In this document: positions 6,216-58,889 of the stretch, in pieces
How the letters are laid out: each line of letters begins with the position of its first letter
Numbering within the stretch: position 1 is the stretch's first letter
Translations under genes and position numbers: made by a program
From: Escherichia phage PNJ-9
Direction: 5' to 3' (one strand)
DNA length: 64,000 nt
Sequence record: PQ100635.1
The notes under the pieces: generated by a model
Database searches by the model: none
The model's input: only the letters and a program-made list of their open reading frames with translations
Told to the model about the DNA's origin: nothing

Positions 6216-7201
6216 TGAAAACAATTATGAAAGGCTACTTTGGTAGCCACCTTTATGGAACGTCTACTCCTGAATCTGACGTCGATTTTAAAGAAATTTA
6301 TGTCCCTCATGCTCGTGATATCTTGACCGGTAACGTTAAAGAACACATGAGCAAGAACACGAATAACACATCTTCTAAGAACACAAAAGACGACGTGGAC
6401 CATGAGTTGTATAGTCTCAAATATTTCTTTAAACTAGCTGCGGACGGTGAAACAGTCGCATTAGATATGCTTCACACTCCACCAAGTTTAGTAGTTAAAT
6501 CTGATTTGCCTGATGTATGGAAGTATATTCAAGATAACAGGTCTCGTTTCTATACCACTAACATGAAATCTTATTTAGGGTATGTCCGTAAGCAAGCTTC
6601 TAAATATGGTGTCAAGGGTTCTCGACTAGCTGTTCTTCGTCAAGCCCTTAAACGTTCTAATGAATGGGGACAATACTTTGATAATGGTGCAGTAATTCGT
6701 TTATCACATATGAAGAATGTTCTGCCTGTAGGTGAATTTGCTTCGTGGGTTGAAACTGAAAACGAGAAAACAGGTAAGCAAACATTCTATAATCTGTTAG
6801 ACCGTAAATTCCAAGACACGTTAACCAATAAAGAGTTCAATGCCATCCTTGTTAAACTGGAAGAGAACTATGGCGAACGTGCTCGTAAGGCAGAAGCTAA
6901 CGAAGGTATTGACTGGAAAGCATTGAGTCATGCATGTCGTGGTGGACTTCAATTATTGGAAATTTACAAAACAGGCGACCTGGTTTACCCACTTCAGGAT
7001 GCTCCATTTATTCTCGATGTTAAGCTTGGTAAACATACGTTTAAAACTGTACAAGAATTCCTAGAAGATATCGTTGACCAAGTTGAACATGCGTCAGAAC
7101 AAGCTGCCAAGAACGGTATGCAACAAAAAGTAGATATGAGTTTCTGGGATGATTTCCTTGAGCAAGTCTATCTCGAAAATCATAATTCTTACTATAAATA
7201 A
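6212..7201 (+). CDS. nucleotidyltransferase-fold protein (329 aa)
   Basis: GSHLYGTSTPESDVDFKEIYV resembles pol-beta-type NTase motif; ATGA overlap start. Confidence 0.55.
   Translation: MMKTIMKGYFGSHLYGTSTPESDVDFKEIYVPHARDILTGNVKEHMSKNTNNTSSKNTKDDVDHELYSLKYFFKLAADGETVALDMLHTPPSLVVKSDLPDVWKYIQDNRSRFYTTNMKSYLGYVRKQASKYGVKGSRLAVLRQALKRSNEWGQYFDNGAVIRLSHMKNVLPVGEFASWVETENEKTGKQTFYNLLDRKFQDTLTNKEFNAILVKLEENYGERARKAEANEGIDWKALSHACRGGLQLLEIYKTGDLVYPLQDAPFILDVKLGKHTFKTVQEFLEDIVDQVEHASEQAAKNGMQQKVDMSFWDDFLEQVYLENHNSYYK
7193..7200 (+). promoter_or_regulatory. late promoter candidate (TATAAATA)
   Basis: Exact TATAAATA upstream of 7233 gene. Confidence 0.35.
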
Positions 7202-7232
7202 ATAGATAAATAACCATTCACTTGAGGTAAAT

Positions 7233-7502
7233 ATGAAAAAATTAGTAATTGGTTTATTCGCAGTAATGATTGCGTTCTCTGTTGGTGCAGCCAGCGGTAG
7301 TGCAGGAGCTGGTGGTAACCAAACTTCTGGGCCTTCTAATGGTTCGGTAAATGCATCACATTCTCAGGGTATTGAGAACATTAAATCAAGCTATATTAAT
7401 AGCACGGCCGGACAAGCAACTGAAGCATGGTCAAAGGGACGAGTAGTTACTCGCTCCGTATTCTGTGATATGCCTAATTATGTTGCTAAGTGCGATAAGT
7501 AA
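7233..7502 (+). CDS. secreted Gly/Ser-rich small protein (89 aa)
   Basis: Signal peptide; GAGGT RBS. Confidence 0.5.
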   Translation: MKKLVIGLFAVMIAFSVGAASGSAGAGGNQTSGPSNGSVNASHSQGIENIKSSYINSTAGQATEAWSKGRVVTRSVFCDMPNYVAKCDK

Positions 7503-16994: not shown

Positions 16995-18300
16995 ATTTGC
17001 GACTCATGCTGAATATAATGATGAAGTAAATACACTTTTCAGCTCTAATGGACAAACGCCTTTTGTAACAATTACATTTGGCACGGGAACTGACTGGACT
17101 GAACGAATGATTCAGAAAGCAATTCTGAAAAATCGTATTAAAGGTCTTGGCCGTGACGGGATAACTCCTATTTTCCCTAAACTTGTTATGTTCGTTGAAG
17201 AGGGTGTCAATCTTTATAAAGACGACCCGAACTACGATATTAAGCAGCTTGCTTTAGAATGCGCAAGCAAAAGAATGTATCCTGATATTATTTCAGTTAA
17301 GAACAATAAAGCTATTACTGGTTCTTCAGTTCCTGTTTCTCCGATGGGCTGTCGTAGTTTCTTGAGCGTATGGAAAGATTCGACTGGTAATGAAATTCTT
17401 GATGGACGTAATAATCTTGGTGTTGTAACACTGAATCTTCCTCGTATTGCATTAGATTCTTATATTGGAACACAATTCAATGAACAGAAATTTGTTGAGC
17501 TATTTAATGAACGAATGGATCTGTGTTTTGAAGCTTTGATGTGTAGAATTAGTTCTTTAAAGGGTGTTAAAGCAACTGTAGCTCCTATTCTTTACCAAGA
17601 AGGTGCATTCGGGGTTCGTCTTAAACCTGATGACGATATAATTGAGTTATTTAAAAATGGTAGAAGTTCAGTGTCCCTAGGATACATTGGTATTCACGAA
17701 TTGAATATTCTTGTCGGACGTGATATTGGACAGGAAATTTTAACTAAAATGAATGCTCGTCTTAAGCAGTGGACTGAAAGAACCGGTTTTGCTTTTAGTT
17801 TATATTCTACTCCTGCTGAAAACCTTTGTTATCGCTTCTGTAAACTTGATACAGAAAAATATGGAAGTGTAAAAGATGTCACCGATAAAGGCTGGTACAC
17901 TAACAGTTTCCACGTTTCAGTAGAAGAAAATATTACTCCATTTGAAAAGATTTCTCGTGAAGCCCCATATCATTTCATTGCAACAGGCGGTCACATTTCT
18001 TATGTTGAACTTCCAGATATGAAAAATAACTTAAAAGGTCTTGAGGCTGTCTGGGATTATGCTGCACAACATTTAGATTATTTTGGTGTTAATATGCCAG
18101 TAGATAAATGTTTTACATGTGGAAGTACTCATGAAATGACTCCTACTGAAAACGGATTTGTTTGTTCAGTTTGTGGAGAAAGTGATCCTAAAAAGATGAA
18201 CACCATAAGAAGAACATGTGGTTATTTGGGAAATCCGAACGAACGCGGATTTAATCTCGGTAAAAATAAAGAAATCATGCATAGGGTTAAACACCAATGA
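16990..18300 (+). CDS. nrdD: anaerobic ribonucleotide reductase NrdD, exon 2
   Basis: C-terminal glycyl-radical motif RRTCGYLGN and Zn-site CFTCGS...CSVCG; frame continuous with exon 1 after splicing. Confidence 0.8.
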   Translation, partial: HEFATHAEYNDEVNTLFSSNGQTPFVTITFGTGTDWTERMIQKAILKNRIKGLGRDGITPIFPKLVMFVEEGVNLYKDDPNYDIKQLALECASKRMYPDIISVKNNKAITGSSVPVSPMGCRSFLSVWKDSTGNEILDGRNNLGVVTLNLPRIALDSYIGTQFNEQKFVELFNERMDLCFEALMCRISSLKGVKATVAPILYQEGAFGVRLKPDDDIIELFKNGRSSVSLGYIGIHELNILVGRDIGQEILTKMNARLKQWTERTGFAFSLYSTPAENLCYRFCKLDTEKYGSVKDVTDKGWYTNSFHVSVEENITPFEKISREAPYHFIATGGHISYVELPDMKNNLKGLEAVWDYAAQHLDYFGVNMPVDKCFTCGSTHEMTPTENGFVCSVCGESDPKKMNTIRRTCGYLGNPNERGFNLGKNKEIMHRVKHQ

Positions 18301-47067: not shown

Positions 47068-48090
47068 ATGGCTGAATGGATAGATAATGAATTTGCTTAT
47101 CGTGCGTTTTCTCACCTACCTCGTTTTAGACAAATCAATAATTCAAGCACATTTAAATTAACATTTCGTTGTCCAGTTTGTGGCGACTCCCAGACAGATG
47201 CAATGAAAGCTCGCGGTTGGTATTATGGCGGTACTCCTGGTAATGTACATTGCTATAACTGCCAATACCACAATACAATTTCCGGATACTTAAAAGAGTA
47301 TGATGAAGAGCTTTACCGCGAATATCTAATGGAAGTTCGTAAAGAAAAAGCTAGAATGGAACCAAAGATTGAAAAGGTTCCTGAAGCTAAGCCGGAGCCA
47401 GAGAAAAAGACTATAAATTCTTTGCCGTCTTGTTCTCGTCTGGACAAGCTGCCTGAAGAGCATCCTATTGTGAAATATGTTAAGTCTCGATGCATTCCTA
47501 AAGAATCATGGAACAGATTATGGTTCACATTAGAATGGCCTAAATTGGTCAACAAGATTCAACCTGGTACGTATAAGAAAGAGATTCCCGAACCACGTTT
47601 AGTGATTCCTATTTTTAATAAAGACGGGAAGGCTGAGTCATTCCAAGGACGTGCACTTCGTAAAGATGCTCCTCAGAAATATATCACTATTAAAGCGTTT
47701 GAGTCTGCAACAAAAATTTATGGTGTTGAACGTGTTAAGGAAGGAGACGTCTGGGTAATGGAAGGCCCTATTGATAGTTTATTCATACCCAATGCAATCG
47801 CTATTACAGGCGGCTCAATAGATTTAGATGTGGTACCATTTAAAGAACGTCGGGTATGGGTAATGGATAATGAACCTAGGCATCCGGATACTATAGCTCG
47901 CATGAAGCGATTAGTTGATGCAGGCGAACGTGTCATGTTCTGGGACCGAGCTCCATGGAGATCAAAGGATGTGAATGATATGGTAATGAAAGAAAATGCA
48001 ACACCACAAGAAATTTTAGAATATATGAAACAGAATATTTCAAGTGGGTTGCATGCTAAAATGAGATTATCTCGTTATTCTAAGATTTAA
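47068..48090 (+). CDS. 61: DNA primase gp61
   Basis: 340 aa; N-terminal zinc ribbon CPVCGD...CYNC and TOPRIM-like core; T4 gp61 is 342 aa. Confidence 0.9.
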   Translation: MAEWIDNEFAYRAFSHLPRFRQINNSSTFKLTFRCPVCGDSQTDAMKARGWYYGGTPGNVHCYNCQYHNTISGYLKEYDEELYREYLMEVRKEKARMEPKIEKVPEAKPEPEKKTINSLPSCSRLDKLPEEHPIVKYVKSRCIPKESWNRLWFTLEWPKLVNKIQPGTYKKEIPEPRLVIPIFNKDGKAESFQGRALRKDAPQKYITIKAFESATKIYGVERVKEGDVWVMEGPIDSLFIPNAIAITGGSIDLDVVPFKERRVWVMDNEPRHPDTIARMKRLVDAGERVMFWDRAPWRSKDVNDMVMKENATPQEILEYMKQNISSGLHAKMRLSRYSKI

Positions 48091-48284
48091 ACAAGCCCTA
48101 TAATAGCAAAGGCCAAATCAACTACAGTATCTAATGGAACAGAAGGAACCATAACACCATGGGCAACTAACAATGGCGCAATACCGAAGTTCCATGAAAT
48201 AATGCCACCTACAACTATTGCAGCGATAGCAGTTTTCTTTTTATTGCCTTTAATAGCGTTGATTAACGATGGAAGTTTAAACAT
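48087..48284 (-). CDS. small membrane protein (65 aa) encoded antisense between genes 61 and 56
   Basis: Strong SD (TAACTAAGGAGATATT-ATG on minus strand); two hydrophobic segments; region has no + strand ORF. Confidence 0.5.
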   Translation of the reverse strand: MFKLPSLINAIKGNKKKTAIAAIVVGGIISWNFGIAPLLVAHGVMVPSVPLDTVVDLAFAIIGLV

Positions 48285-48316
48285 AATATCTCCTTAGTTA
48301 CCTTATTATTTATTAC

Positions 48317-48340
48317 GCTTTATAAAATTAATGTTAGAAT
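48317..48340 (+). promoter_or_regulatory. middle promoter candidate (GCTTTA box, 12 bp, TAGAAT) upstream of gene 56
   Basis: Read directly. Confidence 0.45.
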
Positions 48341-48374
48341 TAACTTCTCTTATACTGAATTGAAAGGAAAAATA

Positions 48375-48896
48375 ATGGCACACTTTAACGAATGTTCACA
48401 ACTTATTTCTGGTGTTGATAAAGCAGAAGAAGCTTATTTTAATGCTCTGATTCACGAAGATAAAGACCCTCTGCAGGTAATGCTTGATATGCAGAAATCT
48501 TTACAGGTTCGTCTGGCAAATGACAAGCCTGAACATAACAAACATCCTGATGAATTGGCTACTGCTGGTGATGTTGTTGATTGGCTGCGTAATCAGAAAG
48601 ATTATATTGATGATGAATTCCGTGAACTGCTGACTTCACTTGGTGGTATGAGCAATGGTGAAAAAGCCGCTAGCTCTGTATGGAAGCCGTGGAAGGCACA
48701 ACATGCTGAATATCGAAATCGTCGTATCGATGAACTGTCTCCTGAAGACCAGCTTGAAATTAAATTTGAAATGATTGATATTCTGCATTTCGTTCTAAAT
48801 ATGTTCCAAGGTCTAGGACTTTCTGCTGAAGAAATCTTCAAACTGTATTACCTGAAAAACCAACACAACTTTGAACGCCAGGATAATGGTTACTAA
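48375..48896 (+). CDS. 56: dCTPase/dUTPase gp56 (MazG-like)
   Basis: 173 aa from ATG after GAAAGGAAAAATA RBS; position as T4 gene 56. Confidence 0.8.
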   Translation: MAHFNECSQLISGVDKAEEAYFNALIHEDKDPLQVMLDMQKSLQVRLANDKPEHNKHPDELATAGDVVDWLRNQKDYIDDEFRELLTSLGGMSNGEKAASSVWKPWKAQHAEYRNRRIDELSPEDQLEIKFEMIDILHFVLNMFQGLGLSAEEIFKLYYLKNQHNFERQDNGY

Positions 48897-48941: not shown

Positions 48942-49178
48942 ATGGGTGGTTATGTAAACATCAAAACCTTTACGCATCCTGCAGGTGAAGGCAAAGAAGT
49001 TAAAGGTATGGAAGTTTCTGTACCGTTTGAGATTTATTCAAACGAACATCGGATTGCAGATTCTCATTATCAGACTTTCCCGTCTGAAAAAGCTGCTTAT
49101 ACAACGGTAGTAACTGATGCCGCTGATTGGAAAACTAAGAACGCTGCAATGTTTACCCCTACACCAGTAAGTGGTTAA
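48942..49178 (+). CDS. soc: small outer capsid protein Soc
   Basis: 78 aa; GYVNIKTF...HYQTFPSEKAAY matches T4 Soc from memory. Confidence 0.8.
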   Translation: MGGYVNIKTFTHPAGEGKEVKGMEVSVPFEIYSNEHRIADSHYQTFPSEKAAYTTVVTDAADWKTKNAAMFTPTPVSG

Positions 49179-57071: not shown

Positions 57072-58889
57072 ATGATTAAAAATGAAATTAAGGTATTGTC
57101 AGATGTAGAACATATTAAGAAACGAAGTGGCATGTATATTGGTTCTTCGGCCAAAGAAGCCCACGAGCGTTTTTTGTTTGGTAAATATCAACAAGTTGAA
57201 TATGTTCCTGGTCTGGTTAAATTAATCGATGAGATTATTGACAACTCGGTTGATGAAGCTATTCGTACATCATTTAAGTTTGCAAATAAAATTGATGTGC
57301 AAATTAAAAATAATCAAGTTTCGGTGGAAGATAACGGACGTGGTATTCCTCAAGGTTTAGTTACCGACCAAACAGGTGAACAAATTCCTGGGCCTGTAGC
57401 AGCCTGGACTATTCCAAAGGCTGGTGGTAACTTTGGTGATGACTCTGAACGCAAGACTGGTGGTATGAACGGCGTCGGGAGTAGTTTAACTAATATCTTC
57501 TCTACGTTGTTTACAGGCATCACGTCAGATGGCGAAAATGAAATCACTGTTAACTGTTCAAACGGAATGGAAAACAAATCATGGTCTTCTAAGAAATCTA
57601 AAGGTAAAGGCACTAAAGTAATCTTCACTCCCGATTTCTCTTCATTTGAAGAGCATAATTTATCTCAAATTTATTTAGATATTACTTTAGACCGACTTCA
57701 AACATTGGCAGTCGTTTATCCTGATATCAAGTTCACATTTAATGGTAAAAAGGTTGATGGTAATTTTAAACGATTTGCTAAACAATTTGGTGAAGATAAC
57801 ATCATTCAAGAAAATGATAAAGTCTCTATAGCATTCACAACATCACCAGACGGCTTCCGTCATTTAACTTATGTGAATAACATTCATACTAAAAATGGTG
57901 GTCATCATGTTGAATGTGTAATGGATGATATCTGCGAACATCTTTTGCCCGGCATTAAAAAGAAATATAAGGGTATTGAAGTCACTAAAGCTCGTGTTAA
58001 AGAATGTCTCACAATGTTGATGTTTATTAGAGACATGAGCAACATGCGTTTTGATTCTCAGACTAAAGAACGTTTAACGTCAACGTATGGTGATATTCGT
58101 AATCATATCCAATTAGATGCTAAGAAAATTGCTCAGGCACTTCTTAAAAATGAAGCTTTGATTATGCCTATTGTTGAAGCAGCATTAGCTCGTAAATTGG
58201 CAGCAGAAAAGGCTGCAGAAACTAAAGCAGCTAAAAAGGCAACTAAAGCTAAGGTTCATAAGCATATTAAAGCTAACCAATGTGGTAAAGATGCGGATAC
58301 GACATTGTTTTTAACAGAAGGTGATTCGGCAATTGGTTATCTCATTGATGTTCGTGACCGTGAACTACACGGCGGATTCCCATTACGTGGTAAGGTGATG
58401 AATAGCTGGGGTATGTCATATGCTGATATGATGAAGAACAAAGAGCTCTTTGATATCTGTGCTATCACAGGTCTTATTCTTGGTGAAAAGGCAGAGAACA
58501 CGAACTATCGTAATATTGCGATTATGACCGATGCCGATCATGACGGTCTTGGAAGTATTTATCCGGCTTTGCTTGCTTTCTTTAGTAATTGGCCTGAATT
58601 GTTTGAACAAGGACGTATTCGCTTTGTTAAAACGCCTGTAATTATTGCACAAATTGGCAAAACTCAAAAATGGTTTTATACTGTAGCTGAGTACGAAGAA
58701 GCTAAAGATACACTGCCTAAGCATAGTATTCGATACATCAAAGGATTGGGCTCCCTTGAAAAGTCAGAATATCGTGAAATGATTCAGAACCCTGTGTACG
58801 ACGTAGTTAAACTTCCTGAAAATTGGAAAGAACTCTTTGAAATGTTGTTGGGTGATGATTCAGAACTTCGTAAAGAATGGATGTCCTAA
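57072..58889 (+). CDS. 39: DNA topoisomerase II large subunit gp39 (GyrB-like ATPase)
   Basis: 605 aa; GHKL ATPase motifs (EDNGRGIP) and TOPRIM; unsplit form (no separate gene 60). Confidence 0.9.
   Translation: MIKNEIKVLSDVEHIKKRSGMYIGSSAKEAHERFLFGKYQQVEYVPGLVKLIDEIIDNSVDEAIRTSFKFANKIDVQIKNNQVSVEDNGRGIPQGLVTDQTGEQIPGPVAAWTIPKAGGNFGDDSERKTGGMNGVGSSLTNIFSTLFTGITSDGENEITVNCSNGMENKSWSSKKSKGKGTKVIFTPDFSSFEEHNLSQIYLDITLDRLQTLAVVYPDIKFTFNGKKVDGNFKRFAKQFGEDNIIQENDKVSIAFTTSPDGFRHLTYVNNIHTKNGGHHVECVMDDICEHLLPGIKKKYKGIEVTKARVKECLTMLMFIRDMSNMRFDSQTKERLTSTYGDIRNHIQLDAKKIAQALLKNEALIMPIVEAALARKLAAEKAAETKAAKKATKAKVHKHIKANQCGKDADTTLFLTEGDSAIGYLIDVRDRELHGGFPLRGKVMNSWGMSYADMMKNKELFDICAITGLILGEKAENTNYRNIAIMTDADHDGLGSIYPALLAFFSNWPELFEQGRIRFVKTPVIIAQIGKTQKWFYTVAEYEEAKDTLPKHSIRYIKGLGSLEKSEYREMIQNPVYDVVKLPENWKELFEMLLGDDSELRKEWMS

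Follow-up and report, generated by a model that had tools for sequence, protein, structure and literature searches.

Why is one small gene read against its neighbors in the 64,000-nucleotide stretch of Escherichia phage PNJ-9 (sequence record PQ100635.1) analyzed here, in the following called the window, and what does this gene encode? The gene is a minus-strand open reading frame (ORF) between the primase gene 61 and gene 56, which encodes a dCTPase. An initial annotation had placed a hydrophobic ORF of 65 amino acids at 48087..48284, and it was recovered exactly there, with an ATG start and the protein sequence MFKLPSLINAIKGNKKKTAIAAIVVGGIISWNFGIAPLLVAHGVMVPSVPLDTVVDLAFAIIGLV. The source is an RB69-like T-even phage (Mosigvirus), and the 2.2 kb around the ORF are 97-98% identical to vB_EcoM-ZQ3, phi25-307, and ST0. 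The further claim that this is the only minus-strand gene in 64 kb rests on the annotation of phi25-307, the closest RefSeq relative (98% over the 2.2 kb compared), in which the small ORF is the sole coding sequence annotated opposite the early strand across the equivalent ~64 kb. Our analysis shows that the ORF is a conserved T-even (Tevenvirinae) gene for a small protein predicted to sit in the inner membrane, and its place on the opposite strand most likely reflects late expression.

To assess the coding capacity of the ORF, pairwise dN/dS ratios (Nei-Gojobori) were determined within genera for 19 loci. Most ratios were 0.03-0.3 for Mosigvirus and Tequatrovirus; for Gaprivervirus and the Yersinia phages they ranged over 0.14-0.47. 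Variable sites were dominated by third codon positions, with 6/0/15 sites at the first, second, and third position in Mosigvirus and 6/2/12 in Tequatrovirus. The convergent overlap with the primase gene at the stop codons, which had been noted earlier, amounts to 4 nucleotides (TTAA), the minus-strand stop being the complement of 48087-48089, and an identical overlap is found in the annotations of phi25-307, RB69, RB51, S16, Merlin, and Entb_45. Since the overlap with another gene is limited to the stop codon, the purifying constraint belongs to the small ORF itself. The near-perfect Shine-Dalgarno (SD) sequence that had been noted is likewise present (TAAGGAG, 5 nucleotides upstream of the ATG), and AAGGAGG or a TAAGGAG equivalent precedes the ORF in 19 of 19 close loci. 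The small ORF is a genuine protein-coding gene under purifying selection.

The gene is already known, as databases carry it as a hypothetical protein in most relatives, in hundreds of phage records. Its product matches phrog_2024, a family of unknown function, over its full length (residues 1-65 of 65, E 2.6e-27). The protein is 100% identical in phages mobillu, SF, and JK45, 95% identical to that of RB69, 95-100% identical within Mosigvirus, and 54-56% identical to the Tequatrovirus proteins. A tblastn search matched it in 692 phage records, ~530 of which are Tequatrovirus at roughly 54-56% identity. Mosigvirus records list a "hypothetical protein" at the same place; the RB69 name is RB69ORF029w, while RB51 carries the label "RB32ORF030w, similar to RB69ORF029w". 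These are the same gene, in the same position and on the same strand, and nothing different in kind separates them from the gene of the window. In the 2006 five-genome paper, a supplementary table lists RB69ORF029w, for which TMHMM gave a helix at residues 21-41 and no signal peptide was predicted (PMC1524935). Literature searches with the names RB69ORF029w and ORF030w found no paper discussing the family beyond this table.

The slot between genes 61 and 56, opposite the early-gene strand, is kept in at least eight Tevenvirinae genera, namely Mosigvirus, Tequatrovirus, Gaprivervirus, Gelderlandvirus, Moonvirus, Jiaodavirus, Kanagawavirus, and Dhakavirus. It was confirmed in T4, RB51, Gaprivervirus CJ20, and Yersinia phage P8, as well as in Salmonella S16 (Gelderlandvirus), Citrobacter Merlin (Moonvirus), Klebsiella Kpn6N (Jiaodavirus), Enterobacter Entb_45 (Kanagawavirus), and IME08 (Dhakavirus). 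The small gene keeps its place despite neighboring insertions, which include dam in T4, a homing endonuclease gene in P8, and other ORFs. When 1.84 billion representative proteins were searched exhaustively with a profile, eight hits were obtained. Five, whose source was traced or recognised, represent this gene in T4-like phages; the remainder were read as T4-type fragments or variants. The three remote hits among the eight (E about 1e-4) occupy the same slot in metagenomic T4-like contigs, so that their homology is confirmed by position. In RB49 (NC_005066; Krischvirus, outside the Tevenvirinae), a mere 14 bp separate genes 61 and 56, with no antisense ORF between them. Judged by this single outgroup, the family ends at the Tevenvirinae boundary. 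In one remote lineage a GC-rich hairpin (GGGGTTACACCCC), which is absent from the window, lies between the convergent small ORF and primase gene and may be a bidirectional terminator.

The T4 homolog consists of 66 amino acids and is encoded at 17738..17938 (+) of NC_000866.4, in the 309-bp gap between dam and gene 61, with the SD sequence AAAGGAGG and the upstream motif GATAAATA. It is unannotated in the curated records NC_000866.4 and AF158101.6 and is called in the automatically annotated OZ209023.1. Likewise, the IME08 RefSeq record NC_014260.1 has no annotated homolog and encodes an ORF of 66 amino acids (MGSIFYQIWKLAEKK...), with a perfect TATAAATA 21 nucleotides before the ATG. A database protein of 61 amino acids resembles the T4 homolog as it would be read from C-to-T converted DNA, with A->V, T->I, P->L, S->F, and H->Y exchanges throughout; this entry is probably an assembly of bisulfite-type data and not a true variant.

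We then analyzed the region upstream of the gene. The element AATAAATA matches the T4 late-promoter consensus TATAAATA at seven of eight positions. Among the 29 loci that could be read through the upstream region, 27 carry nATAAATA 12-33 nucleotides before the ATG, the exceptions being S16 and Merlin; in the close loci the distance is 16-22 nucleotides (19 of 19). In the latter the motif is kept though the DNA farther upstream is unrelated, consisting of dam in T4, gene 56 in RB51 and RB69, and others elsewhere. Six remote metagenomic loci for which upstream DNA was available show GATAAATA or CATAAATA 14-33 nucleotides upstream of the start. Kpn6N carries both GATAAATA and CATAAATA, and in Entb_45, as in IME08, the consensus is perfect. 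In the cryo-electron microscopy structure of the gp55 open complex, base-specific pockets were described for A-12, A-9, and A-8 (PMC7892883), all of which are retained in AATAAATA. RB69-type phages show little conservation of the T at -13, where A or T is found (PMC1524935).

The distribution of the core motif in the window was also determined. ATAAATA occurs in 11 copies, compared with 30.5 +/- 5.3 in dinucleotide shuffles, a three-fold depletion that points to selection against stray late promoters. The minus strand has just two copies of the motif, the site of the small ORF and one at 58556-58562 (GATAAATA), which has no SD sequence or start codon within the following 50 nucleotides. On the plus strand, seven of the nine copies are followed by an SD sequence and a start codon, an eighth precedes gene 49 without an SD match, and the ninth (21149) precedes no ORF. 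The eight copies precede a rI.-1-like ORF, rI, a signal-peptide ORF, gene 49 (endonuclease VII), a homing endonuclease gene, and soc. Late promoters of rI, gene 49, and soc are known in T4. These late genes embedded in early regions (for gene 49, its late transcript) resemble the small gene, as they likewise have a TATAAATA-type motif, an SD sequence, and an ATG inside an early/middle block. However, soc, rI, and gene 49 are on the early strand in the window, whereas the small gene lies opposite, in the usual late orientation. Three overlapping ATAAATA copies (TATAAATAAATAGATAAATA) were seen at 7194-7213 (+) before an ORF of 89 amino acids (7233..7502), which has a signal-peptide-like N-terminus and matches phrog_2243, of unknown function.

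From these data we infer, with good support from the conserved upstream sequence, that the small gene would be transcribed late from its own gp55-type promoter. The initial annotation had regarded its orientation as unusual. In T4-type phages, however, the early and middle genes are oriented counterclockwise, most late genes clockwise, and the small gene has the normal late-gene direction (PMC1524935). Most likely it lies opposite the early strand because it is a late gene. The earlier interpretation thus holds in that a small membrane protein is encoded on the opposite strand, between primase and gene 56, but is not supported in regarding this gene as an unusual antisense member of the early program.

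To characterize the protein, its topology was predicted. An AlphaFold2 model based on a 15-sequence alignment (mean pLDDT 78.8) contains helices at residues 3-13, 15-41, and 51-61. A short basic N-terminus (AIKGNKKK), predicted to be cytoplasmic, is followed by a putative transmembrane helix that spans about residues 18-41 and contains the conserved W-N-F and Pro, and by a predicted periplasmic tail of ~24 residues with the pattern G-x-x-x-P-x-x-x-[LIM]-[DE] and a short terminal hydrophobic helix. Best conserved across the family are W-[ND]-[FYL] and the Pro within the helix, the Gly right after the helix, a near-invariant loop Pro, and an acidic residue. In 12 of 12 lineages compared, 4-7 lysine or arginine residues precede the hydrophobic core and 0-2 follow it, an asymmetry which fits an N-in/C-out single-pass inner-membrane protein, and such a protein is what we take the product to be. 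In the same 12 lineages the helix is followed by [A/S/T]-x-G, resembling a signal-peptidase site, for which small residues at -3 and -1 are expected; however, the hydrophobic core spans ~24 residues versus the expected 7-15, and SignalP was negative for RB69ORF029w (PMC1524935), so that we provisionally treat the helix as an uncleaved anchor. A SAR domain, i.e., a transmembrane segment of low hydrophobicity that can be released from the membrane, as in RI, was considered and dropped, as the hydrophobicity of the helix is not consistently low (mean KD 1.65-2.64 across lineages).

The following course of events is proposed. RNA polymerase with gp55 and gp33 and the gp45 clamp would initiate near 48301 (-), the predicted transcription start, once replication is under way. 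The resulting leader of about 17 nucleotides, together with the strong SD sequence, would allow efficient translation of the small ORF, and its product would insert into the inner membrane. Since no terminator was found on the minus strand near the small ORF in a promoter and terminator scan, the late transcript would continue antisense into gene 61. This antisense overlap is not conserved, and antisense regulation is therefore not thought to be the conserved function. As to the role of the protein, we tentatively suggest an accessory function at the cell envelope toward the end of infection, in the timing of lysis or in lysis inhibition; an early role in superinfection exclusion or as a toxin appears less likely, and a function in membrane-associated assembly is given less weight as well.

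Several observations weigh against this picture. S16 and Merlin have only a degenerate ATTAAATA, and in most lineages the first motif position is A, G, or C instead of T; in the window it is A at -13, unlike the T4 late consensus. The site of the small ORF is also omitted from the hidden Markov model-based list of 31 RB69 late promoters (PMC1524935), and a search of the literature on T4 ribosome profiling, unannotated ORFs, and mapping of late transcription start sites found nothing about the locus. Late transcription, though well supported, is therefore to be taken as an inference and not as a fact. The missing minus-strand terminator belongs here as well. With regard to the protein, only one clear transmembrane segment is predicted, and the C-terminal helix of the model could re-enter the membrane, which would result in an alternative topology. 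Finally, the suggestion of a role in lysis rests on timing and location only, with no homology, fold match, or genetic datum behind it.

If the gene were instead an antisense gene of the early program, it could encode a membrane protein that is made soon after infection and acts in superinfection exclusion or immunity or resembles a toxin, along the lines of the initial annotation. The protein is small and hydrophobic, its function is unknown, and the gene lies among early genes such as those of Imm and Spackle, 3 kb upstream in the window. T4 Imm is likewise a small inner-membrane T-even protein, encoded ~3 kb away in the window. However, Imm is encoded on the early strand behind another type of promoter and acts early. 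Exclusion proteins must act within minutes of infection, which is a poor fit with a late promoter. A consensus scan detected no sigma-70-like promoter on the minus strand near the small ORF, no MotA box was noticed in the sequence upstream, and the sole conserved upstream signal is of the late type. A relation to Imm was ruled out, as hhalign against the Imm of the window gave a probability of 1%. There was no Pfam hit for the window protein and no NCBIfam or PADLOC hit for the window, T4, or Yersinia-phage proteins. For a small hydrophobic type I toxin, one would expect regulation by an overlapping antisense RNA as well as a constitutive sigma-70 promoter; besides the negative promoter scan, no Rfam RNA was matched within 47800-48500. 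The claim of an exclusion, immunity, or toxin function is thus not supported, and we regard it as improbable. Still further from the data is the view that the ORF is incidental and the region conserved as a promoter or origin spacer or as a late antisense RNA against primase mRNA. The ORF is short and lacks annotation in the curated T4 records, the transcript would be antisense to primase as no terminator precedes gene 61, and the gene 56 middle promoter and, in T4, oriA are nearby. However, dN/dS is well below 1 with a frame-specific substitution pattern, and frame, start, and SD sequence are retained at 45-55% amino-acid identity and in remote lineages. Moreover, spacers, a hairpin, or whole genes intervene before gene 61 in some lineages, and the Rfam search was negative, so that this view is hardly credible.

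Another possibility is a lysis protein of the holin or pinholin kind, or one that interacts directly with the holin T, RI, and RIII system, which would form or regulate membrane lesions late in infection. The late-promoter motif, the small size, and the transmembrane helix (TMHMM 21-41; AlphaFold2 15-41) are consistent with this, and rI in the window bears the same kind of late motif. In addition, the OE5505 homolog is labelled 'Holin' in a UniProt/submitter record; however, this is one record of many and no basis is stated. The protein also lacks a charged hydrophilic C-terminal tail (it ends in AFAIIGLV, ...DTVVDLAFAIIGLV, and the C-terminal segment has no lysine or arginine and a net charge of -2), and it has only one clear transmembrane helix. 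The gene does not adjoin rI (4056), the sole lysis-related gene identified in the window, its neighbors are the primase and dCTPase genes with no adjoining endolysin or holin gene, and only the PHROG of unknown function was matched, but no holin family of Pfam or PHROG and no NCBIfam family. T-even phages already possess the holin T. We consider a holin-like protein unlikely. A comparable case, among small late membrane regulators of lysis, is the T4 antiholin RI, with which the small protein shares its small size, a late-promoter motif, and, by prediction, an N-terminal membrane segment and a short periplasmic part. However, no sequence similarity was detected, the two belong to different families (PHROG 1246 versus 2024), and the periplasmic tail of the small protein has only about 24 residues; the small protein has no genetic link to lysis such as an r-type plaque phenotype. 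A profile search against PDB sequences gave no match, and Foldseek of the AlphaFold2 model against BFVD returned family members only.

The protein could also assist late in morphogenesis while anchored in the membrane, for example at the place on the inner membrane from which the portal and prohead are built up. T4 head assembly begins on the inner membrane with gp20 and gp40. Predicted late expression, membrane anchoring, and a Tevenvirinae-wide conservation like that of structural and assembly genes would agree with such a function. However, neither homology nor linkage to head genes was found, and the gene is absent from RB49, which has the T4 head-assembly genes including gp40. Furthermore, we know of no conditional-lethal mutation in the 61/56 interval, and a morphogenesis helper seems a remote prospect, on a par with early exclusion. 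Returning to the accessory envelope role, the family might be an overlooked component of late envelope control in T-even phages, for example a membrane partner that tunes the T holin/RI lysis-inhibition switch or a superinfection sensor, a rather doubtful proposal. The shortness of the gene (65 codons) and its absence from the curated T4 annotation may be why the family would have escaped notice for decades.

In PNJ-9 itself the small gene is ordinary, being annotated already in relatives and having an orientation with a routine explanation. The present analysis adds that the late-promoter motif is conserved, that the distribution of the gene is Tevenvirinae-wide, that RB49 lacks it, and that the T4 reference annotation has a gap. 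Missing from the T4 reference records is a gene under purifying selection that is shared by at least eight T-even genera. It was invisible to at least one published T4 omics study, in which reads were tallied solely for the features that NC_000866.4 annotates. Adding the ORF and re-reading existing dRNA-seq data would be cheap and could add a late membrane protein to the picture of T4 lysis and the T4 envelope.

The features of the locus are compiled in the table.

Table. Coordinates of the small gene, its signals, and neighboring features in the window.
Feature	Coordinates	Strand	Basis or remark
Small membrane-protein coding sequence (RB69ORF029w / RB32ORF030w family, PHROG 2024)	48087..48284	-	ORF call, phrog_2024 match, annotation of relatives, dN/dS
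Shine-Dalgarno TAAGGAG	48290..48296 (48296->48290)	-	5-nucleotide spacer, then ATG 48284->48282; read in sequence
Late-promoter-like -10 element AATAAATA (T4 consensus TATAAATA)	48307..48314 (48314->48307)	-	7/8 positions match
Primase gene 61 (gp61)	47068..48090	+	stop TAA at 48088-48090
TTAA with convergent overlapping stops of gp61 (+) and small ORF (-)	48087..48090	both	4-nucleotide overlap
Middle promoter of gene 56: MotA-box-like CGCTTTA, 12-nucleotide spacer, TAGAAT	48316..48340	+	read in sequence; neighbor, outside the small gene
Gene 56 (gp56, dCTPase)	48375..48896	+	
soc	48942..49178	+	

Genes 61 and 56 are separated by 284 bp, and the gap without a plus-strand ORF that had been described there was found at a cut-off of at least 30 amino acids to contain a single one, of 31 amino acids (48202..48297). 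The position of the gene 56 middle promoter corresponds to Pm:16038, predicted for RB69 (PMC1524935 supplement). It stands back-to-back with the late-promoter motif of the opposite strand, at a distance of 2 bp, and the two opposing promoters could exclude each other in time.

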